64,000 nt of DNA, taken from NCBI GenBank assembly GCA_046297835.1, contig JBKBHI010000001.1:391354-455353 (forward strand), in the 5' to 3' direction. Source of the DNA: Alphaproteobacteria bacterium (GTDB lineage: Bacteria > Pseudomonadota > Alphaproteobacteria > SMXQ01). This document shows positions 3,081 through 47,881 of the stretch, piece after piece. The translations under genes were made by a program, and so were the position numbers. Under the pieces are notes generated by a model that saw only the letters and a program-made list of their open reading frames with translations, made no database searches and was not told the origin of the DNA. How positions within the stretch are numbered: the first letter of the stretch is position 1; every line of letters starts with the position of its first letter.

Positions 3081-3087
3081 CGTCAGC

Positions 3088-22542: not shown

Positions 22543-22552
22543 GGAAACGATC

Positions 22553-29639: not shown

Positions 29640-30380
29640 TCAGAACCAGAAGCGAACGCCGGCGACTAGAGACAAGCTATCGACATCCTCCCCTTCAGAT
29701 CGGGCAAGGATCGCCGTCTCTCCCAACTTTCGCTCCCACGCGACACCAACATATGGCGCAAATTTTCTGCTGAACTCGTAGCGCAAGCGCAAGCCCAACT
29801 CGACATCGTTGATGCCGCCTCCCAGCCCAAGTTCGGGCACGTCCTGCGCTGCGAGGGTGATCTCAGCATTGGGCTGCAGAATTAGCCGCTGAGTGATCAG
29901 AAGGTCGTACTCAGCTTCAAATCGCGCTGTGAAATCGCCCTGTTCACTGACGAAGCCTTGGAGGTCGAGTTCGAAATACCCCGGAGCAAGGCCTTGCAGA
30001 CCGATCACGCCATAGGAGCGAGAGGGATCCGGCTCGAAGTCGTGGCGAACACCGACCTGTAAATCCCAATAGTAATCTATGAGGCGGGAATACAGGAGCT
30101 GAACCTCCGCGCTTTCGATGGCGTCGGATAAGCTGTACTCCCCCTTCGTCTTAAGCCAGACCTTGTGATAGTCGCCGCCGTACCAAGCATCGGCTTCCCA
30201 CGCGATGACGTCCTGCCCGTCTTGGGCACGGTACTCGAACTTATCGACGAGTACCGCCCCGACGAGCGGCTCGTGCATTTGAGACATGTTCGACATTGGC
30301 TGCGCATGGACTGCCGTCACCATAATGATCGACGCCAAGGTTGCAGCCGGAGCGACAAGCCAATTCTTCTTCCATTGCAT
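29640..30380 (-). CDS. copB: copper resistance outer-membrane protein CopB/PcoB
   Basis: Signal peptide. Beta-barrel family signature. Terminal aromatic motif (...GVRFWF). Confidence 0.8.
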   Translation of the reverse strand: MQWKKNWLVAPAATLASIIMVTAVHAQPMSNMSQMHEPLVGAVLVDKFEYRAQDGQDVIAWEADAWYGGDYHKVWLKTKGEYSLSDAIESAEVQLLYSRLIDYYWDLQVGVRHDFEPDPSRSYGVIGLQGLAPGYFELDLQGFVSEQGDFTARFEAEYDLLITQRLILQPNAEITLAAQDVPELGLGGGINDVELGLRLRYEFSRKFAPYVGVAWERKLGETAILARSEGEDVDSLSLVAGVRFWF

Positions 30381-30398
30381 GATTCTATCTCGACTTTC

Positions 30399-32264
30399 TT
30401 AGTGCGCTGCCGACGCGGCATCCCGTTGCACGATGACCTTGCGCATCATGCCCGTCTCCATGTGGTACAGAAGATGGCAATGAAACGCCCAACTACCCTC
30501 GGCATCGACCGGAATATCGACGTCCAACGAGGTACCCGGCTTAATGTTCACTACGTGCTTTAACGGGTCGCGCACACCATTACCGACCCGCGGCAACATC
30601 CACATGCCGTGAAGATGCATCGGATGGTTCATCATCGTTTCATTGATGAATTTGAACCGCGCACGCTCGCCGTACTTCAAGACAATGGGTTCTGCTTCGC
30701 TGAACTTCCGGCCGTTGATAGACCAGAAGAAGCGTTCCATGTTGCCCGTCAGGCGAATTTCAATCACGCGGTCCGGCTCTCGGGCGTCGAAAGGCGACGC
30801 AAACGCCTTAAGGTCCTTGTACGACAGCACCTTCGCGCCAGCCGGAGCCCCGGTGTCGTTGGCGAGGGGATCAGCCATCGCCATCGCCCCATGCCCCATC
30901 GCGGCATGATCCATGCCGGGCATAGCTCCTGTGCTAGGTGCCGGGGCGCTATTGGGCGGGCTTTGGCTCATCTTGGAATGGTCCATGCCAGACATTGCTC
31001 CCGCGCCGGATGACGGGGCGGTGGGCATTGCCATCTTAGAATGATCCATGCCGGCCATGCTTCCCTGCGGGGCCGCGGCGCTTGAACCTTCGCTCATCCC
31101 CGACATCGCGCCATGATCCATTTCCATGGGCGCCACGTGCCCCGGACGATCGGTTTCAGGATGAATCGTCCCGCGATCGAGGCCCGTCGGCCCAAAGCTC
31201 ATGCCCATGTCCGCCATCGTCAGCACGGGACGCGGGCGATGCTCCGGTATTTCGCCAACCATGCCCTCGCGCGGCGCCAGAGTTGCCCGAGCGAAGCCGG
31301 CACGATCGATCGATTCAGCGAGGATTGAGTAAGCCTGATCTTCCCGCGGCTGAACGATGACATCGTAGGTTTCAGCAACGGAAATGCGGAATTCATCGAC
31401 GGGGACGGGTTGGACGTTATTGCCGTCCGCCTGCACGACCGTCATCTTGAGGCCCGGAATCCGGACGTCGTAATAGGTCATGGCCGCGCCATTTATGAAG
31501 CGCAAACGCACCCGCTCACCTGGCTTGAAAAGCGCTGTAAAGTTCTTTTCAGGCGATTTGCCGTTGACCAAGAAGGTATATCCCGCGACGTCGGCGATAT
31601 CGGTCGGGTCCATGCGCATCTGGCCCCACATGAAGCGGTCGCTGAGCGCAGCTCCGAGACCGACTTCCTTAGCGTCGCGGAAGAGATCGACAAGGGTACG
31701 ACGGTTGTTGTTGTAGTAGCCAGGCGAGACCTTGAGATTGCGAATGACCGAGTCCGGATTTTCGTCTGTCCAATCCGACAGCATGATGATGTGTTCCCGA
31801 TCGTAACGGAACGGTTCACGCTGAGCCGGTTCTATAACGATCGGCGCATATAGGCCGAGTTGCTCCTGGTTCGCCGAATGGCTGTGATACCAGTAGGTGC
31901 CAGCCTGAATGATTGGGAATTTGTAGATGAATGTTTCCCCAGGCTGGATGCCGTTGAAGCCCTCGCTGATACCTGGAACTCCGTCTTGGGAAGATGGTAA
32001 AAGCAGTCCGTGCCAATGGATCGAGGCGACTTCATTGAGCTTGTTGGTCACTCGAATGGTGACCTCCTCGCCCTCCTTGAATCGAAGAACGGGGCCTGGC
32101 AATTGACCGTTGATCAGCATTCCCGGGCGCTCTTTCCCAGTTATGTTGACCATCTGATTTTCAAGCACCAGATCATAGGTGCCCGCGTTGGCTGCATGGG
32201 CGAACGCCAGCAGGATACCTGAAGCGGCTAATCCAATGCCGCTTTTCAAAAGCCAGGCTTTCAT
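30399..32264 (-). CDS. copA: multicopper oxidase CopA/PcoA
   Basis: Copper-ligand motifs HWHG, HSH, HPMHLHG and HCHLLYH. Central Met/His-rich insert (MDHSKM, MPGMDHAAMGHG). Confidence 0.9.
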   Translation of the reverse strand: MKAWLLKSGIGLAASGILLAFAHAANAGTYDLVLENQMVNITGKERPGMLINGQLPGPVLRFKEGEEVTIRVTNKLNEVASIHWHGLLLPSSQDGVPGISEGFNGIQPGETFIYKFPIIQAGTYWYHSHSANQEQLGLYAPIVIEPAQREPFRYDREHIIMLSDWTDENPDSVIRNLKVSPGYYNNNRRTLVDLFRDAKEVGLGAALSDRFMWGQMRMDPTDIADVAGYTFLVNGKSPEKNFTALFKPGERVRLRFINGAAMTYYDVRIPGLKMTVVQADGNNVQPVPVDEFRISVAETYDVIVQPREDQAYSILAESIDRAGFARATLAPREGMVGEIPEHRPRPVLTMADMGMSFGPTGLDRGTIHPETDRPGHVAPMEMDHGAMSGMSEGSSAAAPQGSMAGMDHSKMAMPTAPSSGAGAMSGMDHSKMSQSPPNSAPAPSTGAMPGMDHAAMGHGAMAMADPLANDTGAPAGAKVLSYKDLKAFASPFDAREPDRVIEIRLTGNMERFFWSINGRKFSEAEPIVLKYGERARFKFINETMMNHPMHLHGMWMLPRVGNGVRDPLKHVVNIKPGTSLDVDIPVDAEGSWAFHCHLLYHMETGMMRKVIVQRDAASAAH

Positions 32265-32285
32265 TGTTATCTCCTCAACATGATC

Positions 32286-32853
32286 TCAGCGACTGAAATT
32301 AACCTTGCCGACCATGCCCGCTTCATAATGTCCGGGAATATTGCAAGCGAACTCGAGCTCGACAGACTTACTGAACTTCCAAACGAGTTCTGCCGTTTTT
32401 CCAGGTTCGACGAGAACGCTGTTGGGGTCGTCGTGCTTCATCGACATTCCGCCCATCTGGGAATGATCCATATTCTTCATGTCGTGATTCATGCCCGTTG
32501 CGGTCATCATGCCGTGCTCAACCATCATGGCCATCTCCTTTTGATGTTCCATGTGCATCGCGACAGTACCGATGTTGAACTCATGAAGGAGCTGGCCGGC
32601 ATTGGTCAGCACGAAGCGAACCGTCTCTCCAGCCCGGACCTGCACACTTTCCGGCTCATAGGCGTTGTCGATCATTTTGATCCTGACAACGCGTGTCGTA
32701 CCGGTTGCCTTGCCTGCTTCGCCGATGGAATCGGCCGCATGGCTGTGGTCGTTAGCTCCAGCGGCGATAGCAAATGACGGCGGCAGAACCGTGGAAAGGC
32801 CAACCAGCGCGATCTGGAGGCCGCGAAGCGTCTTTGAAACCGATTTTGTCATT
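32286..32853 (-). CDS. cupredoxin-fold (blue-copper) periplasmic protein with a Met/His-rich loop (CopI-like)
   Basis: Type-1 copper ligand pattern (...HEF...C...H...M: FACNIPGHYEAGM). Met/His-rich stretch. First gene of the cupredoxin-pcoA-pcoB operon. Confidence 0.65.
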
Positions 32854-33049
32854 TCACAGTCCTTGGAATGGTGAGGAGTTTTTGGAATAGTGAGAGTTAT
32901 GGTGGCCAGACTCATGAGGGCTCGGCCAACGCAGGAGCGACCCATAACGCGGGGGGCGTCGGGGGCAAAGCAGACGTCTGCGCTGGCCGATGCAGTAAAT
33001 ATTCACTACCTGAGATTACGTGCGGTCTGTATCTCGGCAATCTCTATTG

Positions 33050-33066: not shown

Positions 33067-33157
33067 GCGACGATGGATAAATCGCCCAAGGTCGCTGCGG
33101 TAGATATTGCATCAAGACCCTACGGAAATCCGTAGGCGCCAAGCCACGCAAATAACC

Positions 33158-33601
33158 CTACGAATGCGCTCCGCGGCATTTCCCATGATCGCCAAGCGTC
33201 TCAATGACGCGGCACTCGGCGATCGTGCCTTGATGGCAATCTGAGGTCATCCGCACCAACTCACGCTCCATGCCCTTCAGCAGAGCGATCTTCCTTCGCA
33301 CTTCGACCAAATGTCGGCGGGCAATGGCATCGGCTTCTGTACAGGGCGCATCATGACGACCGCTCATCGCCAGGAACTGCCGCACATCATCCTGCGAAAA
33401 GCCGAGATCGCGGGCGTGCCTTATAAAGCGCAGCGTCGTAGCGGCCGCTTCTGAATATCGACGCTGGTTACCGGCAGTCCGGGGGGCTTGGGGCAGCATC
33501 CCCATCTGCTCGAAGTAGCGGATTGTTTGGACCTTGCACCCTGTCTGCTGAGCCAACTCACCTATCGTTAAGTATTTGATATCACTTATATCAGTGGCCA
33601 T
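33158..33601 (-). CDS. MerR-family heavy-metal-responsive regulator (ZntR/CadR/PbrR-like)
   Basis: N-terminal MerR HTH (LTIGELAQQTGCKVQTIRYFEQMGML). Dimerisation helix. C-terminal Cys cluster (PCTE...SDCH...AECRVIETLGDHGKC). Confidence 0.8.
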   Translation of the reverse strand: MATDISDIKYLTIGELAQQTGCKVQTIRYFEQMGMLPQAPRTAGNQRRYSEAAATTLRFIRHARDLGFSQDDVRQFLAMSGRHDAPCTEADAIARRHLVEVRRKIALLKGMERELVRMTSDCHQGTIAECRVIETLGDHGKCRGAHS

Positions 33602-33611
33602 AAGATTCTCC

Positions 33612-33642
33612 TTGAAGCTCTAGTAACTGTAGCTCTTATGTT
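33612..33642 (+). promoter_or_regulatory. MerR-type promoter (TTGAAG, 19-bp spacer, TATGTT) between the divergent merR-like and ATPase genes
   Basis: The 19-bp spacer is read directly. It contains a direct AGCTCT...AGCTCT repeat rather than a perfect dyad. Confidence 0.45.
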
Positions 33643-33677
33643 GAGCTTTGCAATATTGGACTTTGGGAGAGCTCATC

Positions 33678-36125
33678 ATGTCGGTCGCCACCTTGGGTCA
33701 GCCGTTGCGGTTCAAAGTCGAGGGCATGGATTGCCCAAGCTGCGCGATCAAGATTGAGAACGCGCTGAAATGGCTTCCGGGAGCCGGACAGATAGCCGTC
33801 GATGTCGGCGCCGGCACTGTCGCCGTCACACCGGCCAGCGGAGATTTCGTCCCCGAGGACGCCGCCGAGACGATCCGCAAGCTTGGATACAAAGTCCTCG
33901 CAACCCCAGCGGCGCCGGAATCTCGCCAACCGGTTCGCTTCAGCGTCGAGGGCATGGATTGCCCAAGCTGTGCGATCAAAATCGAGAACGCCCTGAAAAG
34001 AAACCCCGGAGTCGGCTCGATAGCGGTCAATGTCGGCGCCGGCACCGTCGCGGTGACGCCGATCAGCGATGCGTTCGTGGCGGAAGACGCGGCGGAAACG
34101 ATTCGACGCCTCGGATTTAAAGCGCAAGCGAATGCGCATCATGCCAAGGCCTCGCAACACAGTCCCGATAAACACGACCACGCCGGCCATGGCCGTGCGG
34201 GCCATGACCACGCGGGCCACGACGATGGCAGCCCTGCCACCGCAATATCCAGCAGCTCATGGTGGCAAACCTCTAAAGGCCGGTTGGTTCTCGTCGCCGG
34301 CGCGCTGCTGGCTATCGCTTTCATCGCAGACCAGATAGCCCCGGCATTGGGGCCCTGGCCGTTCGTTGCCGCAACGTTGGTCTCGCTGGTGCCCGTGGCG
34401 CGCAGGGCTTTTTCGGCGGCGCGCTATGGCTCGGTCTTCACCATCGAGATGCTGATGACTATCGCCGCTATTGGGGCTCTCGCCATCAACGCGGCGGAGG
34501 AAGCCGCAGTCGTCGTGTTTCTATTCTGCGTCGGCGAGCTGCTCGAAGGCGTCGCCGCGATGCGCGCCCGCAAGAGCATCGCCGCTCTCGGCGATCTGAC
34601 GCCCAAGACGGCCATGATCGTCGACGGAACGACCCTCCGCGAAGTTCAAGCGGATACGCTGCAACCGGGACATGTCGTCATGGTGCGCCCCGGCGACCGC
34701 GTTCCGTCTGACGGCGAGATTCTGGAAGGCAGCTCCGACATCAACGAAGCGCCGATCACAGGCGAGTCGGTGCCTAAAGCCAAGGCGCCCGGAGACACGG
34801 TCTTCGCCGGTACGATCAATCAGACCGTCGCCATCAAGGTTAAAGTGACCAAAGCCGCCAATGACAACACCATTGCGAGGATTCTCCGCTTGGTGGAGGA
34901 GGCTCAAGAGTCGAAGGCCCCCGTCGAGCGGTTCATCGACCGTTTTGCGCGGTTGTACATGCCCTTCGTGGTCGGCATCGCCATTTTAGTCGCGATCGTG
35001 CCGCCGCTCGCTTTCGGACAGCCTTGGGGCGAATGGGTCTATCGCGCTCTCGCTCTGCTGCTGATCGCCTGTCCTTGCGCGCTTGTGATCTCGACGCCTG
35101 CCGCCATCGCTGCGGGCCTGGCAGTCGGGGCGCGGCGCGGCTTGCTGATCAAAGGCGGCGCCGTGTTGGAAGGGGTTGGCCGGCTGCGCACCATCGCGTT
35201 CGACAAGACAGGCACGCTGACCGAGGGAAAGCCGAAGGTCACGGATATCGTGAATATCAACGCCTCGCCCGAGGACGCGCTCCGTCTAGCCGCCGCGCTG
35301 GAGAAAGGTTCAAATCATCCCATCGCCAAGGCGATCCTCGCCCGCGCGGATCGCGACGGACAAAGCCACACGACGGCGCAGGACGTCGCATCTCTCGGCG
35401 GTCATGGCCTGACGGGCGTCGTGGAGGGCCGCGCGCTGTTCCTCGGCAATCCGCGCAGCGCGGCGCAGCGGTCCGGCTTCGACGATCACGTGGCCGCCGA
35501 GACCTCCCGCTTGGAAAGCGAAGGGAAGACGGTCGCGGTTTTGATCGAGGGCAACTCCACTCTTGCCCTCATCGCGCTGCGCGACGAACCTCGTAAAGAC
35601 GCCAAACGCGGCTTGGCTGCTCTATCCGCGCTCGGCGTTAAAGGCGTGATGCTGACGGGCGACAACGCGCGCGCGGCGGCGGCCATCGCCCGCGATCTTG
35701 GCGTGGAACCACGGGCCGAACTGCTGCCTGAGGACAAGGCCCGCATCGTCAATGAACTGAAAGCTGCGGGCTATGGTCCGGTCGGCAAAGTCGGCGACGG
35801 CATCAACGATGCGCCCGCGCTGGCGGCGGCCGACGTCGGCATCGCGATGGGCGGCGGAACCGATGTCGCCCTGGAAACGGCGGACGCCGCGCTGTTGAAC
35901 AATCGCGTCATGGGCGTCGCCGAGTTGGTGAAGCTATCGCGGGCGACTCTGTCCAATGTTCACGTCAACGTGGCTTTGGCTATTGGCTCGAAAGCGATAT
36001 TTCTCGTGACGACCGTTCTAGGCTTGACGGGCATGTGGGTCGCCATCATGGCCGATACCGGCGCGACAGTGCTCGTCACCCTCAATGCGCTGCGCTTGCT
36101 CGCCTTCCGATTCGACAAAACCTGA
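33678..36125 (+). CDS. P1B-2-type (Zn/Cd/Pb) heavy-metal ATPase with two tandem HMA domains and a His-rich linker
   Basis: GMDCPSCAIKIENALK occurs twice (ZntA-like metal site). His-rich HDHAGHGRAGHDHAGHDD. CPC motif (IACPCALVISTP). DKTGTLT, GDGINDAP. A TTG at 33648 is an alternative start. Confidence 0.85.
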   Translation: MSVATLGQPLRFKVEGMDCPSCAIKIENALKWLPGAGQIAVDVGAGTVAVTPASGDFVPEDAAETIRKLGYKVLATPAAPESRQPVRFSVEGMDCPSCAIKIENALKRNPGVGSIAVNVGAGTVAVTPISDAFVAEDAAETIRRLGFKAQANAHHAKASQHSPDKHDHAGHGRAGHDHAGHDDGSPATAISSSSWWQTSKGRLVLVAGALLAIAFIADQIAPALGPWPFVAATLVSLVPVARRAFSAARYGSVFTIEMLMTIAAIGALAINAAEEAAVVVFLFCVGELLEGVAAMRARKSIAALGDLTPKTAMIVDGTTLREVQADTLQPGHVVMVRPGDRVPSDGEILEGSSDINEAPITGESVPKAKAPGDTVFAGTINQTVAIKVKVTKAANDNTIARILRLVEEAQESKAPVERFIDRFARLYMPFVVGIAILVAIVPPLAFGQPWGEWVYRALALLLIACPCALVISTPAAIAAGLAVGARRGLLIKGGAVLEGVGRLRTIAFDKTGTLTEGKPKVTDIVNINASPEDALRLAAALEKGSNHPIAKAILARADRDGQSHTTAQDVASLGGHGLTGVVEGRALFLGNPRSAAQRSGFDDHVAAETSRLESEGKTVAVLIEGNSTLALIALRDEPRKDAKRGLAALSALGVKGVMLTGDNARAAAAIARDLGVEPRAELLPEDKARIVNELKAAGYGPVGKVGDGINDAPALAAADVGIAMGGGTDVALETADAALLNNRVMGVAELVKLSRATLSNVHVNVALAIGSKAIFLVTTVLGLTGMWVAIMADTGATVLVTLNALRLLAFRFDKT
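33699..34120 (+). repeat. intragenic tandem duplication (about 219-bp period) encoding the two HMA domains
   Basis: The two copies are highly similar at the nucleotide level across about 200 bp (ggcatggattgcccaagctg[c/t]gcgatcaa[g/a]at[t/c]gagaacgc...). Confidence 0.7.
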
Positions 36126-36146
36126 TGAACATCTGATTTCGACAAT

Positions 36147-36638
36147 ATGCCCCGCTCCTTGCACCTTGGATTATTTTCGGCGTTCTTCGTTGCCGCGTTT
36201 TCAGCCGATCAGGCTTCTAAGAAAATCGCTTTAGACGCGCTTGCAAATCCGCCTCGGATCGTTGAAGTCCTTTCTTTTTTCAACCTGAGGCTCGGATTCA
36301 ACAGCGGAGTGAGCTTCGGATTGTTCGCGACCGATTCGCCGTACATCCTGATCTCTCTGACGGGGGCCGTGATCGCGATTCTCGCCTGGTGGGCTTATCG
36401 CGCTCAATCCGCTATTGAGACGGTTGCATTGGGGCTCATTGTCGGCGGCGCGCTGGGCAACCTCGTCGATCGCATTCGACATGGCGCAGTTGTCGATTTT
36501 CTCGACCTGTTCTACCAGGAATGGCATTGGCCGACCTTCAATGTCGCCGACATTACGATTGTTTCCGGGACGTTGCTTTTAGTTCTGACGTCCTTGCGCC
36601 AAGGCAAAACGCCGACAAAACCCGCCTCAAAAAGCTGA
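36147..36638 (+). CDS. lspA: lipoprotein signal peptidase II
   Basis: Conserved LspA blocks (FNxGxSFG, NLVDRIRHGAVVDF, FNVADI). Confidence 0.8.
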   Translation: MPRSLHLGLFSAFFVAAFSADQASKKIALDALANPPRIVEVLSFFNLRLGFNSGVSFGLFATDSPYILISLTGAVIAILAWWAYRAQSAIETVALGLIVGGALGNLVDRIRHGAVVDFLDLFYQEWHWPTFNVADITIVSGTLLLVLTSLRQGKTPTKPASKS

Positions 36639-36657
36639 ATTTCCCCTGCGTGAACAG

Positions 36658-37170
36658 ATGACCGGAATGACTGGACGAGCGGCCCTCCTGGTCGTGTTTG
36701 CTGTTTTTACAATGCAGGCGGGCGCGCTCTCGCGCGCGGTCGCGCATGAGTTCAAAGCGGGCGAGATAACTGTCCAACACCCCTTTAGCCGCGTGACGCC
36801 GAAGGGCGTTAAAACTGGAGCGGCCTACATGACGATCGTGAACGGCGGAACATCGCCTGACCGCCTCATCGGCGCGACGACGGAGATTGCAGAACGCGCC
36901 GAAATTCATCGCACAACCACGACTGACAACGGCGTCATGAGAATGCGCCTCCAGCCCGACGGAATCGCCATACCCGCTGCCGGCGAGATCAAGCTCCAGC
37001 CCACGAGCGAGTATCATATCATGCTGGTCGGCCTCAGCGAGCCGCTGCAAGAAGGAATGAAAATTCCTCTCGTCGTGAAGTTCGAGAAAGCGGGATCCGT
37101 TGCGGTCGAACTGGCTGTCGAGGCTCTGCGAAAACGTCCCGATGCGCCGCCGAGTCACGGCGATCATTGA
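36658..37170 (+). CDS. periplasmic copper chaperone PCu(A)C (DUF461)
   Basis: Signal peptide and the H(M)x10Mx21HxM-type copper motif (HIMLVGLSEPLQEGMKIPLVVKFE). Confidence 0.75.
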   Translation: MTGMTGRAALLVVFAVFTMQAGALSRAVAHEFKAGEITVQHPFSRVTPKGVKTGAAYMTIVNGGTSPDRLIGATTEIAERAEIHRTTTTDNGVMRMRLQPDGIAIPAAGEIKLQPTSEYHIMLVGLSEPLQEGMKIPLVVKFEKAGSVAVELAVEALRKRPDAPPSHGDH

Positions 37171-37778
37171 CGATGAAAACCCTACGGCTTGTTCGTATCG
37201 TCGCGTGGATCGCTGTCGCATTGGCGCTCACGCTGCTTTTTGGCTATTGGAAATCCCTGCCGTCCAAAAAATCTGAGGATGCGGCTATCACGTCGCCGAT
37301 GCGGCTTGGAGGGTCTTTTTCGCTCGTTGACCACACCGGAGAGGCTGTCACAGATAAAGATTATCGCGGCAAGCCGCATTTGCGGTTTTTCGGTTTCACG
37401 CATTGCCCGGACGTCTGCCCTACGACATTGTCGTGGCTCGCCGACCTCGTGGAGCAGTCGGGCGGAGATGTCCCTATTCTGCTCGTCAGCGTCGATCCCG
37501 AGAGAGATACCCCAGAGGTGCTCGCGGATTACGTCTCCAGTTTTGGCCCGAACATCGTTGGACTGACGGGGACGGTCGATCAGATCGACGCTGTCGTCAA
37601 AAGTTGGGGAGCCTATTCCAAACGGGTGCCGCAAGAGGGCGGAGGATATACGATGGACCACACCGCTAGCGTCTACTTGGTCGATGGCGACGGCGCTTTC
37701 CGCGGCACTCTCGACATTCATGATGCGTCTCCGACGGCAAATCTCGCCAAACTTAAACGTCTCCTCGAATCGAATTGA
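37167..37778 (+). CDS. SCO1/SenC copper chaperone / thiol-disulfide oxidoreductase
   Basis: N-terminal membrane anchor. CxxxC motif (FTHCPDVCP) plus the conserved distal His in a thioredoxin fold. Confidence 0.8.
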   Translation: MTMKTLRLVRIVAWIAVALALTLLFGYWKSLPSKKSEDAAITSPMRLGGSFSLVDHTGEAVTDKDYRGKPHLRFFGFTHCPDVCPTTLSWLADLVEQSGGDVPILLVSVDPERDTPEVLADYVSSFGPNIVGLTGTVDQIDAVVKSWGAYSKRVPQEGGGYTMDHTASVYLVDGDGAFRGTLDIHDASPTANLAKLKRLLESN

Positions 37779-37790
37779 AGCCGGAGCATT

Positions 37791-37973
37791 ATGAGCGACA
37801 GCCAGAACGAGCGAAAATCGAGACAGAAGCTCCAGCAGCGCCTGAAGTCTCGCAACCTCGCTCTGGCCGCCGTTCTGGCTGGGTTGGTCATCTTGTTTTT
37901 CGCTGTCACTATCGTTCGCGTTCAACAAGGAAGCGAACAACGGGGCAATGCCCCTCTCATTATAAATCGTTGA
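37791..37973 (+). CDS. hypothetical small single-TM protein
   Basis: 60 aa: a basic N-terminus, then one hydrophobic helix. No homology recognised. Confidence 0.25.
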   Translation: MSDSQNERKSRQKLQQRLKSRNLALAAVLAGLVILFFAVTIVRVQQGSEQRGNAPLIINR

Positions 37974-37986
37974 GGGACTGACGGAG

Positions 37987-38418
37987 ATGGCCGAAAATAG
38001 GAATGGCGCAGTCTGGAATTTGATCTTTGCCGCTTGGCTCGTCGCCTTGGCATCCACTCTCGGCGCCCTGTTTATCGGCGAAGTCATGGGGCAAACGCCG
38101 TGCAACCTCTGTTGGTTTCAGCGCGCGTTCATGTTTCCTCTGGTCGTGATCCTCGGCATTGCCTGCTACCGGTCCGATGCCGCCGCTTGGATATACGGAC
38201 TGCCGGTCGCAGTCGCCGGCGGCTTGATCGCGGCGTTTCATAGTTTGCTATACTTCGGCGTCATCCCTAAGGAGATCGAACCCTGCGGAGCCGGCCCGTC
38301 CTGTTCGAGTCCGGATATGCTCATGCTCGGCCAGCTTCCGATCCCGGTTCTTTCGCTCATAGGTTTCATGGCCATTATCGGCCTTTTGCTGGTCGTCCGT
38401 CGGAGGCTCGAATCGTGA
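37987..38418 (+). CDS. disulfide bond formation protein B (BdbC-type DsbB)
   Basis: Four-TM protein with PCNLCWFQR in the first periplasmic loop and a second Cys pair (CGAGPSC). Confidence 0.7.
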   Translation: MAENRNGAVWNLIFAAWLVALASTLGALFIGEVMGQTPCNLCWFQRAFMFPLVVILGIACYRSDAAAWIYGLPVAVAGGLIAAFHSLLYFGVIPKEIEPCGAGPSCSSPDMLMLGQLPIPVLSLIGFMAIIGLLLVVRRRLES

Positions 38419-39077
38419 TGTCGAAGCGCGTTATCGTTCTGCTGACGGCGCTCGTCGCCGTGGGAATCTTTTTCGGCGCGGGCGTCGCCTACGACCGCCA
38501 GATGGCCAAGCTGAAAGAAGAAGCCGCCACCGCTTCCGCCAACGCGCTTATCCGCGACCATTCGCCTGTCATCGGAATCCCCGACGCGCCCGTCACGATC
38601 GTCGAGTTTTTCGACCCTGCCTGCGAATCCTGCAGAGCCTTCTATCCGATCGTGAAGCAAATTCTCGCGCGCCATCCGGATGATGTCCGCCTCGTCTTAC
38701 GTTACGCCCCGCTTCACGAGGGGTCAGACCAGGTCGTGCGGCTGCTCGAAACCGCGCGTATTCAGGGCATCTTCGAGCCTGTCCTCGAATCCGTGCTGCA
38801 AGCCCAGCCGCGTTGGGCGGCGCATGGCAATCCAGATATCGATATTGCCTGGCAGGCAGCTCGGATCGCGGGTCTCGATATAGAGCGCGCCAAACAGGAT
38901 CTAAATCTCCCGGCGATTGAAGCCGTCCTGAAACAGGATGTCGCGGACTTAACGACCCTTAAGATCAGGGGAACGCCGACGTTCTTCGTTAACGGCCAGC
39001 CCTTGCAATCCTTCGGACCGCGCCAGCTCTATGAAGCTGTCCTCAATGCGTTGCAGAATATTCGAGCTGCCGAGTAG
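38415..39077 (+). CDS. DsbA-family thiol:disulfide oxidoreductase (BdbD-like)
   Basis: Membrane anchor or signal peptide. Thioredoxin fold with a CESC active site and a cis-Pro region (GTPTFFVNG). Confidence 0.75.
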   Translation: MMSKRVIVLLTALVAVGIFFGAGVAYDRQMAKLKEEAATASANALIRDHSPVIGIPDAPVTIVEFFDPACESCRAFYPIVKQILARHPDDVRLVLRYAPLHEGSDQVVRLLETARIQGIFEPVLESVLQAQPRWAAHGNPDIDIAWQAARIAGLDIERAKQDLNLPAIEAVLKQDVADLTTLKIRGTPTFFVNGQPLQSFGPRQLYEAVLNALQNIRAAE

Positions 39078-39101
39078 CAGCCGTTATTACTGAGGTCCGA
39101 C

Positions 39102-39914
39102 GTGATTGATCTGCACTCTGCGCTGCTCGCTGGTCTGCTCGGAGCTGTCGAAGGGCTTACCGAATTTATTCCGGTCTCATCCACCGGACATCTGATTCTC
39201 TTGGTCGATTTACTTGGATTTCAGGGGCCTCCCGGCAAGGTCTTTGAAGTTGCCATCCAGCTTGGCGCAATCTTCGCCATTTGCTGGGTCTATCGCCGAA
39301 AGCTTTGGACTGTTGCAGTCAACTTCCCCAATGACAGAAATGCGCGCCGCTTCATATTTTCTATTTTAACTGGCTTTTTGCCGGCGGCATTGATCGGGGC
39401 GCTCTTGCACGATTTCATAAAGAGCGTTCTCTTTTCGCCCTATGTCGTGTCTGTCAGCCTCGTTTTGGGCGGGTTTGCCATGCTGGCGATTGAGCGATGG
39501 GCGCCGTCCCCGCGCATATCAGGAGTTGACCATGTGGACCTTAACACCGCTCTCAAGATTGGCTTCTGTCAGGCATTAGCCATGATCCCGGGAGTGTCCC
39601 GCTCCGGCGCGACAATCATGGGAGCGATTATGCTCCGAGTAGACCGCCAGACCGCGACGGAGTTCTCGTTTTTTCTCGCGATACCGACAATGGTCGGAGC
39701 CACGACTCTAGATCTCTATAAAAACTGGGAATCCATCGATCCTGCCGGGGGACTGATGATCGCGATCGGTTTTAGTGCGGCTTTCGGTGCCGGCCTTCTT
39801 GTCGTCAGGCGTTTAATCGCCTTTGTCGGAAAACACGGGTTCGCTCCGTTCGCCTGGTACCGTATCGCCTTAGGATTGGGGATAATCTTTATATATATGC
39901 CGGCCTCCGTATGA
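39102..39914 (+). CDS. uppP: undecaprenyl-diphosphatase (BacA/UppP)
   Basis: Conserved BacA blocks (EFIPVSSTGHL, PGVSRSGATI, AIPTM). Confidence 0.85.
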   Translation: MIDLHSALLAGLLGAVEGLTEFIPVSSTGHLILLVDLLGFQGPPGKVFEVAIQLGAIFAICWVYRRKLWTVAVNFPNDRNARRFIFSILTGFLPAALIGALLHDFIKSVLFSPYVVSVSLVLGGFAMLAIERWAPSPRISGVDHVDLNTALKIGFCQALAMIPGVSRSGATIMGAIMLRVDRQTATEFSFFLAIPTMVGATTLDLYKNWESIDPAGGLMIAIGFSAAFGAGLLVVRRLIAFVGKHGFAPFAWYRIALGLGIIFIYMPASV

Positions 39915-40265
39915 GGCTTGTGGTCGATCACCCTTCGTCACCGCCGCACTCAAATCTAATCAGGCCTGTTCTTTCTCCAGCTTACTCAACAAGCGGCGTA
40001 TAAGCGCGATATGGCCATCTCCCGCTCTTCGGCTTTTCGCTTGCCTATCCCGGCCAGCAATTCCTCCTGCTGCTCCAGAGATAACGCACCATAGCTGTTC
40101 AAAGCGCAGCCACATTTTCATGGCCCATGTTTTGACACCACGCCTTTAAGGCTTCTTGCGCGGACCTATTGAGCGAGCAGTCAAGGCATAATCTGCATTT
40201 GGTGGTGGAGAGTTCTCTCGACTGCACGCCTTTTTGGAGCGTGCATGGGGCCTTAAGGAGGCTTC

Positions 40266-40751
40266 ATGCAACGCGATATTTCAAAAATAGCCTTAGATAT
40301 TGGCTCTCTGAACGGCTGCTCCCTTGCCCAATTACAGGCGCAATGGACGACCCTTGCGAGTAAGCCCTTAAAGGGGGCTCGGCGTGACTTATTGCAGCGC
40401 GCCATTGCTTACCTTTTGCAAGACCAGGAAGGCGGCGGCCTCTCAGCAAAAACGCGCCAGCGCTTAGGTCAGTTGGCTAAAACTTATGCCAAGGATCGTA
40501 GCGCCCAGGCCCAGATGGCGCCCGATCTCAAACCGGGCTGCCGGCTCCTCCGCGAATGGCAAGGCGTCATGCACGAGGTCGTCGTGCTGGAACAGGGCTT
40601 TCAGCACGATGACCGCACCTACCGCAGCCTCTCGGAAATCGCGCGCACGATCACCGGCACGCGCTGGTCGGGCCCACTGTTCTTTGGTTTGAAGAAGCCT
40701 GCTGGCACGGCGCAGCCATCGCACGCCGGTAAGATCAAGGCAGAGCGATGA
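40266..40751 (+). CDS. DUF2924-family protein (recombinase-associated)
   Basis: 161 aa directly upstream of a large serine recombinase, overlapping it by 4 bp. This pairing is typical. AAGGAGG ribosome-binding site. Confidence 0.55.
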   Translation: MQRDISKIALDIGSLNGCSLAQLQAQWTTLASKPLKGARRDLLQRAIAYLLQDQEGGGLSAKTRQRLGQLAKTYAKDRSAQAQMAPDLKPGCRLLREWQGVMHEVVVLEQGFQHDDRTYRSLSEIARTITGTRWSGPLFFGLKKPAGTAQPSHAGKIKAER

Positions 40752-42451
40752 GCGCGCCTAAAGTTCTGCGCTGCGCCATCTACACGCGCAAATCGTCGGA
40801 GGAGGGGCTTGAGCAAGAATTCAACTCTCTCGACGCCCAGCGCGAGGCCTGTGAGGCTTATGTCCTGAGCCAGCGTCATGAAGGCTGGCAGGCGCTCGAG
40901 ACGTTGTACGATGACGGCGGCTATTCCGGCGGCAATATGGAGCGTCCCGGGCTGGTGCAACTGCTTGCCGATGTCCGGGCGCGCAAAGTCGATGTCATCG
41001 TTGTCTATAAGGTCGACCGGCTCACGCGCGCCTTGTCGGACTTCGCCAAGATCGTCGAGACGCTGGACGGGCATGGCGTTTCCTTCGTCTCGGTGACGCA
41101 ACAATTCAACACCACCAGCTCGATGGGGCGGTTGACGCTCAACGTGCTGCTGTCCTTTGCCCAATTCGAGCGCGAGGTCACAGGCGAGCGCATTCGCGAT
41201 AAAATTGCCGCTTCGCGCAAGAAAGGCATGTGGATGGGTGGTCCGGTGCCGCTCGGCTACGACCTGGTCGATCATAAGCTGGTGATCAACGAGCCCGAGG
41301 CGACGACGGTGCGGCAGATCTTCGAACGCTACGCTGAACTGGGCTGTGTCCGCAAACTCAAGGCCGCACTCGACGAGGCCCAGATCGTGAGCAAGCGACG
41401 CGTAACCGCGGGCGGCCGGGCGTCGGGTGGCCAAGCCTTCGGTCGCGGCCAGCTCTATCATCTGCTGCGCAACCGGCTCTATCTCGGCGAGGCGGTGCAT
41501 AAGGGAACATCCTACCCAGGGCAGCATGACGCGATCATCGCGCCACGGCTATTCGAGGAAGTGCAGGCGACGCTGGCCGCCAATCGCGTCGCGCGTCGTG
41601 ATCGCCAGGGTGCCGCGTCGCCGAGCCTGCTCGCTGGCTTGCTCTTCGACACGGACGGCCAGCGCTTCACGCCGAGCCACACCCAGCGCCATGGCCGGCG
41701 CTATCGTTACTATGCCGCAGCTCAGCCGGCGGACGAGGGCGCCTCACAGGCCGGCCGGCTGCAGCGGTTGCCGGCGGCGCAGATCGAGGCCATCGTCGAG
41801 GGCGAGCTGAGCCGCTTGCTGGCGACGCCGTCCGAGCTTCTGAGTTATCTGCCCGGCGCGCCCGCGGTCCTGACCCACGCGGTTCTCAGCGGTGGGGCCG
41901 CTGCGGCGATACGCTGGTCGGCGGCCGCGGCACCCGCGCGGGGGACACTGCTGCGCGCTGTGCTACGCCGGGTGACGGTAAGCGCCACGCAGCTGCGCCT
42001 GACCGTCGACTTGCCGGCGCTGTGGCGGATACTGCTGCCTCTAGAGCAAGCCGAGGCCGCCAGCGCCTTGGCGCCGGCGACGCTCGAGATCGAACGGCCG
42101 GTGACTCTCAAGCGCAGCGGTCGTGAGACCCGGCTCTGGGTCCCTGGCGCCAACGCGCCACGGCAAGTGGCCAAGCCCAATCCGGCGTTGATCAAGCTGG
42201 TGGTCCGCGCTCATGACTGGTGGGGGCAGTTTCGGGCGGGGCGCTCGACGCAGGCGATTGCCAACGCGCTCGGCCTCAACCGCAGCTATATCGCGGCAGT
42301 GATGCCGCTCGCCTTCTTGGCGCCAGATCTGGTTGAGGACATCCTGGCCGGCTGTCAACCGCCGGGCTTACAGACCAAAGACCTGATGGACCTGCCATTA
42401 GAATGGGCGGCGCAGCGCGCGCTCCTCGCGGCGCGCGCTGAAGGTATCTGA
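40748..42451 (+). CDS. large serine recombinase
   Basis: Resolvase catalytic domain (AIYTRKSSEEG...DAQRE...VIVVYKVDRLTR). Recombinase domain. Long C-terminal coiled-coil/Zn region. 567 aa. Confidence 0.85.
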   Translation: MSAPKVLRCAIYTRKSSEEGLEQEFNSLDAQREACEAYVLSQRHEGWQALETLYDDGGYSGGNMERPGLVQLLADVRARKVDVIVVYKVDRLTRALSDFAKIVETLDGHGVSFVSVTQQFNTTSSMGRLTLNVLLSFAQFEREVTGERIRDKIAASRKKGMWMGGPVPLGYDLVDHKLVINEPEATTVRQIFERYAELGCVRKLKAALDEAQIVSKRRVTAGGRASGGQAFGRGQLYHLLRNRLYLGEAVHKGTSYPGQHDAIIAPRLFEEVQATLAANRVARRDRQGAASPSLLAGLLFDTDGQRFTPSHTQRHGRRYRYYAAAQPADEGASQAGRLQRLPAAQIEAIVEGELSRLLATPSELLSYLPGAPAVLTHAVLSGGAAAAIRWSAAAAPARGTLLRAVLRRVTVSATQLRLTVDLPALWRILLPLEQAEAASALAPATLEIERPVTLKRSGRETRLWVPGANAPRQVAKPNPALIKLVVRAHDWWGQFRAGRSTQAIANALGLNRSYIAAVMPLAFLAPDLVEDILAGCQPPGLQTKDLMDLPLEWAAQRALLAARAEGI

Positions 42452-45125: not shown

Positions 45126-45590
45126 GTGACGCGTTTCACCGTTTTTGGAAAGAGCCTGGATGCAAACGAGCAGCAGGCTTTAAGGAAATTCGCCGAGCAA
45201 GCAGCGGGCAAAGGGGATGAGGTTAGTTTTGCCGCGTCCATTGGCGAGCCCGATCCCTCTGTCGATAGCGAAGTCGTTCTGGTTTTGGGAACGGCAAGTA
45301 CGTGTGCTAGCGCCGATCTCGCCAATGATTTGCAGCTGGCTGCAAATGGTGCCCGGCGCATCATCTGGGTTTGGCCGGAGGGCGTAGGCGAATGCGAGCT
45401 GCCTTCAGTCGTCAGGACTTACGCCTATTCGATCATCGTTTGGAATGTGGGGAAGTTAAAGTCGGTCGCAGCCGACGATGATGCGAGGTGCTTTGAAGCA
45501 TCGACGGGGGAGGCCCTGCCTAAAGTCGAAACTGAACGAAATCTCTGTGCCGATGTTGAGGCCGAAAACCCCAAGGCTAAAACAAAGTGA
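45126..45590 (+). CDS. hypothetical protein, possible Rossmann-like (SLOG/TIR-like?) nucleotide-binding fold
   Basis: GTG start with a GAGGTGG ribosome-binding site; the annotated TTG at 45078 or ATG at 45084 would lie inside the operator. VVLVLGTAS...ADLANDLQLAANGARRIIWVWPEG is reminiscent of SLOG/LOG-type folds. Low certainty. Confidence 0.4.
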   Translation: MTRFTVFGKSLDANEQQALRKFAEQAAGKGDEVSFAASIGEPDPSVDSEVVLVLGTASTCASADLANDLQLAANGARRIIWVWPEGVGECELPSVVRTYAYSIIVWNVGKLKSVAADDDARCFEASTGEALPKVETERNLCADVEAENPKAKTK

Positions 45591-46219
45591 ATTTATTCTC
45601 TTACGTCGTAGAGCACGATCTTGGGTTCGCTCCGAATCCATTTCACGGATTTTGCACGCTTGCTTGTTGCAAGCCGGAGATCCGTAAAAAAGCGAAAGAG
45701 GGTGACTACATAATTGGCACCGGTGCAACAAGGCCGGGGCTTCTCGGGCACATCACCTATTGGATGCGTGTGGATGAGATTCTGACCTTCGATGAATATT
45801 GGAGTGACCGCCGCTTCCGTTACAAGAAGCCCTACATGGAAGGCACTACCATGTTGCGCTACGGCGACAACATTTATCACCGAAGCGGCGGTAAAGATTT
45901 TCAGCAAGAGGATTCATTCCACAGCCATGAGGATGGCAGCCTTTCTCGTGGTGATTTAAAGCGAGATACCCAAAAGACGGAGAGGGTTCTTATAGGGCGT
46001 GACTTTTCGTATTGGGGGCGTAACGGAATACTGTTGCCGGAACACCTGCAGTGCCTTGTGAAAAAAGGACCTGGGCATAAGTGTCGATTCACTGAAGAGC
46101 AGATAGCTATGTTTCATGCTTGGTTGAGCAATCAGCGTGAACGTGGCTTTAAGGGGGAGCCGGCTCATTGGCAATTTATTGGACAGCTCAAGCGCCGGCC
46201 TTCCCGGGCTCGGAGGTGA
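45587..46219 (+). CDS. Nmad2-like (nucleotide-modification-associated domain 2) protein
   Basis: The N-terminus MNLFSYVVEHDLGFAPNPFHGFCTLACCKPEIRK matches, from memory, the conserved start of the Nmad2 family. The start overlaps the upstream stop (ATGA). Confidence 0.5.
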   Translation: MNLFSYVVEHDLGFAPNPFHGFCTLACCKPEIRKKAKEGDYIIGTGATRPGLLGHITYWMRVDEILTFDEYWSDRRFRYKKPYMEGTTMLRYGDNIYHRSGGKDFQQEDSFHSHEDGSLSRGDLKRDTQKTERVLIGRDFSYWGRNGILLPEHLQCLVKKGPGHKCRFTEEQIAMFHAWLSNQRERGFKGEPAHWQFIGQLKRRPSRARR

Positions 46220-46222: not shown

Positions 46223-47881
46223 ATGAGGCCTATCGACTACGACCAATTCGTTCGCAAAACCGATCAATATTCTTTGAAGGCCCCCAAGGAGCGTCATGCA
46301 ATTGCTTTGTATGGGCTTGTGGGCGAGATCGGCTCTTTAATCTCGGCCATAAAAAAGAAAATATTGGCCGAGGGTGGTGAGGCTGATTGGGATCAACCAA
46401 ATAAAGAGATCAAAGAAGAGATAGGGGATGTGCTTTGGTACTGCTACTCGCTTTCTCAAATCGTCAATGCGACATATTTTGATATTCTAACGAACGATAT
46501 TTCAGTCCTAAGACGCGAGATCGAGGGAGGCAACGAACGGGCTGAGAAAATTAGTGCGGCGCTCGCGGCGCTTGATCCAAAAAGTAAGAACGAATTTCTT
46601 TCAGCCGCGGCGCTCTTTCCTATTTCAAATGACTTTTCATTTGATGCTTACCAAGCGCTTGCATTCAAAACTGCAAGAACGGACGGAATAATCCTTCTCG
46701 AGGTTTGCTTGGCTGTCTTGCCGCAATTAGGTGCGGAGCTTTTGCGCTCGACACTTCCCGAAGTGGAGTTGACCCTTAATAAAAATATTGCCGACCGTGC
46801 GCCCAACGTTGTTTTGGGTGAGGTGGCTTGGCATCTATCTGCAATCTCAAGCCTCTATAATTTATCGCTAAATGACGTTGTCGATTTTAATTGTCAGAAA
46901 GTAAGTTTCAGATCGGAGAGGGGGAATCCTGCCTCTCTTCATGATGAGGGACGAAAGGAGCAAGAGCAGTTTCCTCGAAAATTTAGCATCACGTTTGTCG
47001 GTATTGAGAAGGGCCTATCAAGGATGTACTTCGAAGGCCATCGACTGGGAAATGACCTAACAGATAATGCGAAAGAGGATGATGGTTATCGTTTTCATGA
47101 CGTGCTTCACCTGTCGCTCATTGGGCATCTAGGCTGGTCGCCAGTTTTTAGAGGTTTTATGAAGAAGAGGCGTCCCGACGTTGATGAGGTCGAGGATGGT
47201 GGCCGGGCTAAAGTGGTTGAGGAATTGGTTATCAAGGCCATTCACTCTGAAGGAGTGAGTCAGGCGAGGGAATCAGGCAGATGCTCTGTTGGCACTCCGA
47301 TGCGTTTGTTTCCTGAGAAAAGCACCATTCCCTTCAGGCTTTTGAAAACCATAGATTTATGGGTTGAAGATCTCGAGGTCCGCCAGAACAGATTCTGGGA
47401 ATGGGAGGATGCAATTCATGAAGGTTGCGAGATTTTCTTTAAGCTGTGTGAGCATGGCCAAGGCACTGTGCACGTAGATTTAAAAAATCGCAGTCTGACT
47501 TTTGAGTCTTTGGTAACGCCTGGCGTTCAGGGGTTAACTGTTGGGCTTGGCATGGGAGTAGGTGATGCCAGCGCAGGAGGCATACTTACTGAGGTGGATA
47601 AGACTTTCGCAGAAGGGCTGTCTGGTCTCGCTCAGGTGGTAGCAGCAAAGCGAGCGCTATTCGAAGCACTGGGATTGTCGAACCCGCCGGTCTCAATGTG
47701 GTTGCAGGTTGATATTCGCGTGGTCGACGGAAATAAAATATCTGTGAGTGCCAGGGGCGACGTGCAGGAGCGCATATGGAGCATGCAAGTCGTCGACTAC
47801 AAAGCTGCTTTCGTCAATATGACTGATAACGTGTTGTGCACTATCGCTGCGATTGCAGATGTTGAAGATCTAAGAAAATGA
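46223..47881 (+). CDS. fusion protein: N-terminal MazG-like all-alpha NTP pyrophosphohydrolase domain plus about 440-aa uncharacterised region
   Basis: HAIALYGLVGEIGSL...EIKEEIGDVLWYCYSL fits the MazG/HisE EExxE/D signature. The remainder has no recognisable motif. Begins 3 bp after the previous stop. Confidence 0.55.
   Translation: MRPIDYDQFVRKTDQYSLKAPKERHAIALYGLVGEIGSLISAIKKKILAEGGEADWDQPNKEIKEEIGDVLWYCYSLSQIVNATYFDILTNDISVLRREIEGGNERAEKISAALAALDPKSKNEFLSAAALFPISNDFSFDAYQALAFKTARTDGIILLEVCLAVLPQLGAELLRSTLPEVELTLNKNIADRAPNVVLGEVAWHLSAISSLYNLSLNDVVDFNCQKVSFRSERGNPASLHDEGRKEQEQFPRKFSITFVGIEKGLSRMYFEGHRLGNDLTDNAKEDDGYRFHDVLHLSLIGHLGWSPVFRGFMKKRRPDVDEVEDGGRAKVVEELVIKAIHSEGVSQARESGRCSVGTPMRLFPEKSTIPFRLLKTIDLWVEDLEVRQNRFWEWEDAIHEGCEIFFKLCEHGQGTVHVDLKNRSLTFESLVTPGVQGLTVGLGMGVGDASAGGILTEVDKTFAEGLSGLAQVVAAKRALFEALGLSNPPVSMWLQVDIRVVDGNKISVSARGDVQERIWSMQVVDYKAAFVNMTDNVLCTIAAIADVEDLRK

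Follow-up and report, generated by a model that had tools for sequence, protein, structure and literature searches.

A BacA-type undecaprenyl-diphosphatase gene at the end of a putative MerR-controlled Zn/Cd/Pb efflux operon on a low-GC island of an alphaproteobacterium

The lead-resistance genes pbrTRABCD of pMOL30 combine a MerR-type regulator, a divergent promoter with a 19-bp spacer and a P1B-2 pump with a signal peptidase II and a periplasmic-face undecaprenyl pyrophosphate (C55-PP) phosphatase encoded in the same transcription unit (PMC3431237, PMC4790310). The phosphatase, PbrB, is of the PAP2 family and gives lead resistance together with the pump PbrA, which has been read as lead-phosphate precipitation (PMC3431237, PMC4790310). 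A divergent MerR gene and a P1B-2 ATPase gene with lspA next to it also make up pbrR2 (PbrR691)-cadA-pbrC2 on the mobile island CMGI-1 of C. metallidurans CH34 (PMC2864759, PMC3431237), a cluster that is listed with cdfX and for which no phosphatase is reported. Further C55-PP phosphatases lie in mobile or paralogous clusters that are reported to be induced by Zn or Pb, as in Tn6048 (mmfB) and in the UppP-DUF347 genes of Frankia (PMC12029693, PMC2864759, PMC4531530), and an island of metallicolous Mesorhizobium, for which induction by Zn and Cd has been measured, encodes a P1B ATPase and a membrane phosphatase along with signal peptidase II, thioredoxins and a CcdA-type thiol-disulfide protein (PMC3668242). 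Here we describe a 64,000-nucleotide (nt) stretch of DNA from an alphaproteobacterium (GCA_046297835.1, contig JBKBHI010000001.1; hereafter the window, with positions counted from its first letter) in which the gene for a BacA-type UppP closes a tightly packed series of genes, at 33158–39914, that includes a divergent MerR regulator, a P1B-2 pump and LspA. In the open-access literature we found no description of a BacA-type UppP within P1B-2 pump operons that also carry LspA and Dsb/SCO genes; a copper transcriptome paper on Erwinia was set aside, as it mentions only wbaP and no uppP.

The four genes named in a preliminary description of this DNA, encoding the MerR regulator, the ATPase, LspA and the BacA-type UppP, were all recovered with Pfam and NCBIfam models, and the assignment of the ATPase to P1B-2 rather than to the Cu(I) pumps of P1B-1 was borne out. 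The ATPase matched the NCBIfam ZntA-type model with 810 bits versus 404 for CopA, and its closest solved relative was Shigella ZntA (4UMV, 596 bits, versus 340 for Legionella CopA, 3RFU). Its motifs IACPCALV, GSKAIFLV and ADTGATV align to C392/C394, K693 and D714 of ZntA, so that it combines the marks of P1B-2 membership: the CPC motif, the Lys of the fifth and the Asp of the sixth transmembrane helix (TM5 and TM6), and a likeness to ZntA over CopA. Two heavy-metal-associated (HMA) domains with GMDCPSC lie at the N-terminus, the protein also has a His-rich linker, and the whole sequence is identical to MFN4281405.1. A second ATPase of the window (23538–26054) is of the copper type, with 723 bits for CopA versus 425 for the ZntA-type model. 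As the preliminary description stated, lspA follows the pump directly, which is also the order of pbrR2-cadA-pbrC2 (PMC2864759, PMC3431237). LspA scored 111 bits with TIGR00077 (cut-off 74) and keeps the Asp dyad, its GNLVDR and FNVAD motifs being conserved relative to 5DIR/9EMZ and lining up with residues D124 and D143 in the LspA of P. aeruginosa. UppP scored 355 bits with NF001389, above the cut-off of 262, and 268 bits with Pfam BacA, and it retains E17, E21, S27, H30 and PGxSRSG (R174) exactly as in E. coli BacA (5OON), these being the catalytic residues and motif of BacA (PMC5852022). No PAP2 gene was present in the window when all open reading frames (ORFs) of at least 50 amino acids (aa) were scanned for the three PAP2 motifs, and there was no second uppP or lspA in the 64 kb.

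The regulator, earlier described as a divergent ZntR/PbrR-like MerR protein, is more precisely of the CadR/PbrR divalent-metal type. Its best match among solved structures was PbrR691 (5GPE, 85 bits), followed by CadR (80), Hg-MerR (77) and, at a distance, CueR/ZntR (45), and its C87, C122 and C130 align to the metal ligands C78, C113 and C122 of PbrR691. The best NCBIfam match was CadR-PbrR, with 99 bits versus an equivalog cut-off of 151. A helix–turn–helix and dimerisation helix, the Cys equivalent to position 79, two C-terminal Cys and, in the target promoter, a spacer of 19–20 bp with a dyad, as expected of CadR/PbrR-type sensors, are all present, and the C-terminal tail GDHGKCRGAHS adds Cys142 and His residues, with a single Cys and no CVC/CxC motif. 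In pMOL30 PbrR, the C-terminal CxC motif, as CVC with Cys134, is essential for the response to Pb, and it is typical of PbrRs linked to PbrABC (PMC3431237). By inspection of its sequence the window protein lacks this feature of PbrR proper; therefore nothing specifically indicates lead. We classify the regulator as a predicted divalent-metal sensor of the CadR/PbrR2 kind. The divergent intergenic region between the MerR and ATPase genes is 76 bp long and contains TTGAAG and TATGTT boxes separated by a 19-nt spacer, which holds the imperfect dyad AGCTCTAGTAACTGTAGCT (33616–33634); a 19-bp spacer is a hallmark of MerR-family promoters (PMC3431237). Four loci agree fully in the -35 box, in spacer length and in the dyad, while their downstream untranslated region and leader have diverged, a pattern that is the expected footprint of a MerR operator.

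The preliminary description placed uppP downstream of lspA in the same orientation, which is correct, but it is not the loose neighbour pictured there: the 2.46 kb from the lspA end to the uppP start are fully coding on the same strand, as seen from ORFs and their translation, and uppP is the terminal gene of a tightly packed, probable operon. The picture of four genes missed five more, for PCuAC, SCO1, a 60-aa YCO2-like protein, DsbB and DsbA (Table 1). Gaps between consecutive plus-strand genes are at most 24 nt when the 60-aa ORF is included, and two pairs overlap. We counted the operon as nine plus-strand genes; the named rows from the ATPase to UppP are eight, or nine with MerR. An operon break in the apparent 208-bp gap between SCO1 and dsbB was ruled out by the conserved 60-aa ORF, which is an ORF in locus L001 as well. 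The YCO2 label of this protein comes from the precomputed Pfam PF27516 match of its L172 orthologue; Pfam and NCBIfam scans of the protein itself gave nothing above threshold, and Pfam a sub-threshold Coa3 match. The true start of SCO1 is likely the ATG at 37173, with orthologues called at 201 aa. In consensus scans, terminator-like and promoter-like sites inside the block showed no excess over shuffled sequence, a result that neither supports nor excludes internal transcription signals, and an Rfam scan of 32–43 kb at E <= 1 had no match, so no riboswitch or known RNA lies in the operon. Because the gaps are so short and a single conserved MerR-type promoter precedes it, the block from the ATPase to uppP is probably one operon.

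Table 1. Features of the operon and its immediate neighbours in the window
Feature	Position	Strand	Basis
MerR-family metal sensor, CadR/PbrR2 (PbrR691) type, 147 aa	33158..33601	-	Pfam MerR, MerR_1, MerR-DNA-bind
Putative MerR-type promoter/operator	33612..33642	+	read from sequence
P1B-2 P-type ATPase, 815 aa	33678..36125	+	NCBIfam ZntA-type, PDB alignment
LspA, accessory copy, 21 nt past the ATPase stop	36147..36638	+	Pfam Peptidase_A8, TIGR00077
PCu(A)C periplasmic copper chaperone	36658..37170	+	Pfam PF04314, 118 bits
SCO1/SenC thioredoxin-fold copper chaperone	37167..37778	+	Pfam PF02630, 162 bits
YCO2-like single-pass membrane protein (family of small proteins from cytochrome-oxidase regions), 60 aa	37791..37973	+	translation; orthologue annotation
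DsbB/BdbC-like membrane disulfide oxidoreductase	37987..38418	+	Pfam PF02600; NCBIfam PRK03113 100 bits, below cut-off
DsbA-like membrane-anchored thioredoxin-fold protein, overlaps the dsbB stop	38415..39077	+	Pfam Thioredoxin_4, DSBA
BacA-family UppP, terminal operon gene, 24 nt past dsbA	39102..39914	+	Pfam BacA, NCBIfam NF001389
DUF2924 protein and large serine recombinase (mobility module)	40266..42451	+	Pfam PF11149, Resolvase, Recombinase
Copper-resistance cassette of copB, copA (multicopper oxidase) and copI, directly beside the MerR gene	29640..32945	-	Pfam CopB; TIGR01480 724 bits; NCBIfam CopI (231 bits, under its 280-bit cut-off)

The first three genes of the locus belong to the CadR/PbrR2-cadA-lspA module already described, and cadR-cadA-lspA modules such as Tn6018 are similar to them. 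Compared with pbrR2-cadA-pbrC2, the window operon has six extra genes (PCuAC, SCO1, YCO2, DsbB, DsbA and UppP). The resemblance to pbr proposed in the preliminary description stands for the pump, LspA and the phosphatase, which here lie on one strand with the short gaps given above and without an excess of terminators, and in pbr in one transcription unit, but it leaves the five inserted copper-chaperone and disulfide genes unexplained. Moreover, the window phosphatase belongs to BacA rather than PAP2 and is encoded separately from LspA; lead specificity is unsupported; and the cooperating part ascribed to PbrC has no backing in the published pbr model, which gives PbrC no demonstrated role (PMC3431237). 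Neither the family of PbrT (ILT-type uptake) nor that of PbrD (Pb binding) appeared among the Pfam matches of the ORFs scanned, which covered 13.9–51.5 kb of the window except for several small ORFs, with no reliable model for PbrD. Lacking both the PAP2 and the CVC-regulator features, the operon as a whole does not qualify as pbr. The other described systems differ in their own ways: mmfB of Tn6048 encodes a BcrC-like PAP2 protein and is under a two-component system, with DUF347 permeases and neither a P-type ATPase nor LspA in that cluster, and the window ORFs scanned included no DUF347 gene; the Mesorhizobium island has a PAP2-fragment phosphatase and another gene order and regulator, with BacA not reported.

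The linkage between pump and uppP recurs in relatives (loci designated by L numbers or accession) in two main forms. Architecture A has the MerR gene divergent to ATPase-LspA-PCuAC-SCO1-YCO2-DsbB-DsbA-UppP, as in the window. It is complete in L177, where the plus-strand proteins are 54–78% and MerR 80% identical to those of the window and UppP is intact at 76% identity (tblastn). GCA_041447055.1 has the same eight called genes from MerR to BacA, with UppP 90% identical and, by annotation only, no small ORF called in the 207-nt SCO1–DsbB gap. L172 shows 98% nucleotide identity over window 35161–39884 and keeps the order through UppP; its contig starts in a 5′-truncated ORF upstream of lspA, presumably the ATPase, with the MerR region off the contig. 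L001 has architecture A in part. A DedA gene lies directly 3′ of UppP in two of these relatives, L172 and GCA_041447055.1. A small (50–60 aa) YCO2-family protein occurs 3′ of SCO1 in every architecture-A locus checked, as at L176 8361–8531 and L177 8375–8548, and one more ORF of the family, at L004 2166–2318, lies directly 3′ of a BacA gene and without metal genes nearby.

Architecture B, found in L005/L006, L013 and L092, runs ArsR-CDF-P1B-2 ATPase-BacA-LspA-DsbD (CDF, cation diffusion facilitator) and shares the ATPase–phosphatase–LspA order of pbr. Its ATPase has the CPC and ADVGAS motifs and scores as P1B-2 (572 versus 378 bits), and compared with the window the ATPase is 40%, LspA 51% and UppP 69% identical; the window LspA is 42% identical to a housekeeping ileS-linked LspA. 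L005/L006 additionally carry an integrase and, alone among these loci, the conjugation genes TrbI/TrbL, so that this copy is on an integrative and conjugative element. L013 adds Lnt and CusB; its Lnt gene (9130–10770) follows DsbD, and this island thus has two of the three lipoprotein-maturation enzymes. Other arrangements were seen on plasmids: CcdA-PCuAC-SCO-LspA-ArsR-ATPase-UppP with a frameshifted uppP in Pararoseomonas, ArsR with an ATPase remnant and intact UppP in Roseomonas, and an ArsR-UppP pair with no pump in Bosea. L003 has SCO1-UppP with a MerR fragment and an ATPase of the copper type as neighbours. Some candidates were rejected as metal modules: in L010 the lspA and serine recombinase near uppP are housekeeping ribF-ileS-lspA synteny, and the UppP matches on Acinetobacter and Pantoea plasmids have unrelated or housekeeping contexts. 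In L009 (Sphingomonas sp. LK11 plasmid NZ_CP013917.1, 7652–10198), uppP lies between an enolase gene and crcB in a cluster with a chloride-channel family gene and phosphatases that looks like fluoride resistance, which suggests that UppP has been taken up in a non-metal setting as well, to back up an enzyme that is sensitive to an ion.

As a background we used 160 uppP loci from genome and metagenome scans, with neighbourhoods of ∼10 kb. Among these, links to a P1B ATPase were confined to L013 and L092, which are architecture B, and to L051, where a copper ATPase lies 4 kb off; a few loci have a housekeeping lspA several kb away. The association of uppP with metal pumps is far beyond chance. 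Neighbour joining of 172 UppPs placed every mobile or metal-linked copy in one 13-member clade, within which the bootstraps were 100 for A, 80 for A with L003 and L004, and 100 for B. Whether it had one origin or two, the pump–uppP linkage is under selection.

We favour the reading of the operon as modular, horizontally acquired and carried on a mobile low-GC island. Guanine–cytosine (GC) content is 0.65–0.69 at both window ends versus 0.48–0.62 across ∼16–53 kb. This low-GC stretch holds, in order, cusBA with a cytochrome c gene, a CopA-type ATPase with copRS, copB, copA and copI, and the operon, and continues with the DUF2924 and large serine recombinase genes and then DNA-hypermodification genes. 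The DUF2924–recombinase pair likewise follows the operon in L172, and the upstream side varies: copABI is not beside the operon in GCA_041447055.1, where phage-type integrases and a DedA gene flank it, nor in L177, where the cusBA–cytochrome c block abuts the MerR gene directly. The 10-kb segment of the window with the CopA-type ATPase, copRS and copBAI is therefore best taken as an insertion between that block and the MerR gene. A plasmid megablast with 33100–40000 matched nothing but short stretches of conserved ATPase sequence, and no related element turned up. In the cusBA block (17858–23059), a CusB with an N-terminal YtkA/FixH-like domain is followed by cusA and the cytochrome c gene, with no cusC seen. 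The hypermodification cluster, in the lowest-GC part of the window (0.48–0.53), comprises Nmad2 (45587–46219), a protein with MazG and MazG_C domains (46223–47881) and, on the minus strand, a protein with a 5-hydroxymethyldeoxyuridine (5-hmdU) DNA kinase helical domain (47870–48964). L170, which shares the flanks of the window, has no match to window 43.4–52.4 kb, so the cluster looks like a separate insert, possibly phage-derived. L170 also has 944 bp (1901–2845) that are extra relative to window 28969 and lie inside a gene for a 337-aa Acyl_transf_3 protein (2346–3359); the window copy, without this stretch, may be truncated.

With respect to function, we favour a horizontally acquired metal-stress operon that couples Zn/Cd/Pb efflux to envelope maintenance at the periplasmic face, and give this reading a probability of roughly 0.45. 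A CadR/PbrR2-type MerR dimer on the 19-bp-spacer promoter would bind a thiophilic divalent metal and turn on transcription of the operon, and the P1B-2 ATPase would then export Zn, Cd or Pb from the cytoplasm to the periplasm. The companion genes would keep the metal-disturbed, periplasm-exposed processes running: LspA, with Lnt in L013, for lipoprotein maturation; PCuAC, SCO1 and YCO2 for copper supply to respiratory oxidases; DsbB/DsbA, with DsbD or CcdA elsewhere, for disulfide handling; and UppP, with DedA in relatives, for recycling of the cell-wall carrier lipid by turning C55-PP into undecaprenyl phosphate (C55-P) and phosphate on the outer side of the inner membrane. BacA carries out this reaction in a pocket that faces the periplasm (PMC5852022), and E. 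coli BacA requires Ca2+ or Mg2+, with no activity given by Zn, Cu, Co or Fe (PMC4641660). Because it depends on Ca2+/Mg2+ and its active site is open to the periplasm, the resident BacA could be vulnerable to competing metals, and the main benefit of the additional UppP would be a steady supply of C55-P while the resident enzyme meets them. The phosphate released may additionally trap exported metal, as proposed for PbrB. That the companion genes form a co-regulated kit for envelope processes prone to mis-metallation or thiol poisoning is a tentative idea that would account for all of them at once, and to which we would give somewhat less than even odds.

Several features of the relatives bear on which product of UppP would matter. 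DedA proteins are candidate C55-P translocases (PMC9876793), and the DedA gene 3′ of UppP in two relatives points to carrier-lipid recycling over phosphate release as the selected function. The retention of UppP alone under ArsR on the Bosea plasmid, or with a decayed pump on the Roseomonas plasmid, points to carrier recycling as well, as does the uppP between the enolase gene and crcB on the Sphingomonas plasmid. Lnt and DsbD in architecture B point to general envelope biogenesis, and the Mesorhizobium cadA island, with its LspA, CcdA, thioredoxins and PAP2 fragment, is induced by Zn and Cd (PMC3668242).

A number of observations count against envelope maintenance as the function of this operon. 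L176 carries the whole architecture but stops at DsbA, with no UppP, and an Aureimonas locus consists of ATPase-DsbB-DsbA-MerR only. In L170 (GCA_044226095.1), which has the chromosomal flanks of the window, a clean 3.3-kb deletion takes out YCO2, DsbB, DsbA, UppP and DUF2924; at the junction (L170 11230–11430; window 37476 / 40780), SCO1 codon ∼103 is fused to recombinase codon ∼11 through a CTA microhomology, and the fusion is called as one 578-aa 'resolvase'. This junction could be a real deletion or an assembly artefact of a metagenome-assembled genome (MAG). Taken together, L176 and L170 without uppP mean that the pump module functions without it. In the window itself, no DedA gene or remnant was found after uppP: the near-identity (98%) to L172 runs out at 39884, which is 30 nt short of the uppP stop codon and makes the last ∼10 UppP codons differ, and the following ∼350 bp (39884–40265) have no convincing ORF where L172 and GCA_041447055.1 have a DedA/VTT gene. 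A recombination breakpoint lies at about 39884. The UppP sequence bears no signature of metal tolerance, its catalytic residues all being canonical, and copper-type chaperones sit beside a Zn/Cd/Pb-type pump, so that the logic joining them is of our own making. The 13-member clade of mobile UppPs had a bootstrap of 20/100, though it was recovered with the full data and two distance methods; therefore we do not claim a single origin, and one origin with shuffling or two independent recruitments are possible histories. What we observe is which genes are present, that their catalytic residues are intact, that they are packed like an operon behind a conserved operator, that the synteny recurs and that the setting is an island; from this we infer co-transcription, the inducing metals and the selected product of UppP, as well as every other functional statement that goes past gene identity and synteny.

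The uppP gene is facultative: two relatives that are syntenic in other respects lack it, and one plasmid copy has a frameshift. The preliminary idea that a BacA-type enzyme stands in for the PAP2 phosphatase holds in so far as the link is recurrent, BacA sits between pump and LspA in architecture B and the window has no PAP2 gene, and falls short in that the gene is dispensable to the module. That idea, in its full form, has the BacA-type UppP replacing PbrB, its phosphate precipitating exported Pb, Cd or Zn and thereby blocking re-entry, with LspA taking the part of PbrC. We regard it as possible but rather unlikely. The enzyme would act at the same step and site and with the same products as PbrB, as a periplasmic-face C55-PP phosphatase (PMC4790310, PMC3431237, PMC5852022), and in three or four independent contigs BacA is exactly between the P1B-2 ATPase and LspA, which is the order pbrA-pbrB-pbrC and a triplet that this idea accounts for very well. 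The regulator is nearest to PbrR691, no PAP2 gene competes for the role in the window, and there are precedents in the PAP2-type, Zn/Pb-induced mobile phosphatase mmfB of Tn6048 (PMC12029693, PMC4914505) and in the UppP-DUF347 operons of Frankia, reported to be induced by Pb and already proposed to be PbrB-like (PMC4531530). However, replacement of PbrB would account for just two of the eight pump-linked genes, PbrC itself has no demonstrated role and the CVC motif typical of PbrABC control is missing from the regulator (PMC3431237). The DedA genes beside UppP in relatives suggest that the C55-P product matters, two plasmids keep UppP with no pump, two pump operons have lost it, and the phosphate yield is stoichiometrically bound to cell-wall flux. 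Envelope maintenance and the replacement of PbrB invoke the same reaction, and the two are not mutually exclusive.

The variable 3′ end of the operon, with uppP beside a recombination breakpoint and absent or decayed in several relatives, is also what would be seen if the gene were hitch-hiking cargo with no functional tie to the pump, or if it protected against C55-PP-sequestering compounds of the bacitracin kind. Plasmid-borne additional genes for C55-PP phosphatases do give bacitracin resistance (PMC4914505), and 150 of the 225 plasmid UppP matches were in Enterococcus. We nevertheless hold this explanation to be improbable, as uppP is linked to MerR/ArsR sensors and P1B-2 pumps in at least three gene orders whose proteins are only 40–69% identical, the gaps of at most 24 nt imply co-expression with the pump, and just two or three of the 160 background loci have any link to a P1B ATPase. 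That uppP is simply the only bacA of the cell and just happens to follow a metal operon would agree with its fully canonical BacA sequence, yet we consider this very improbable: its mobile context and its losses in relatives argue strongly against the only housekeeping copy. The gene is in the low-GC island (0.55–0.58, with flanks at 0.65–0.69) and has a serine recombinase beside it, the same block has different flanks in other genomes, the close relative with the same chromosomal flanks (L170) has deleted it, and housekeeping uppP loci of alphaproteobacteria look different, one example being near ribF-ileS-lspA.

PbrB is the sole carrier-lipid phosphatase whose contribution to metal resistance has been dissected experimentally, and it has been read as a source of lead-precipitating phosphate. 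A non-homologous enzyme that performs the same reaction and is recurrently wired to Zn/Cd/Pb pumps, in one architecture in the position of PbrB, is a natural experiment that asks which product of UppP counts, the phosphate or the recycled C55-P. It is conceivable, though in our judgement doubtful, that mobile accessory BacA-type UppPs are an unrecognised class of metal-resistance proteins in alphaproteobacteria, recruited, possibly repeatedly, beside P1B-2 pumps and LspA under MerR or ArsR control in place of PbrB. If so, the part of a C55-PP phosphatase in metal resistance would be a property of the reaction, through carrier recycling and/or phosphate release, and not of PAP2 proteins. Because extra UppP can raise bacitracin resistance, such operons would also be relevant to co-selection. 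The neighbours found with these genes (LspA, Lnt, DsbA/B/D, CcdA, SCO1, PCuAC and DedA) suggest that periplasmic efflux may need a co-regulated repair kit for the envelope, which, if true, would explain the poorly understood lspA genes beside cadA/pbrA pumps and justify labelling accessory uppP copies as metal-stress genes.

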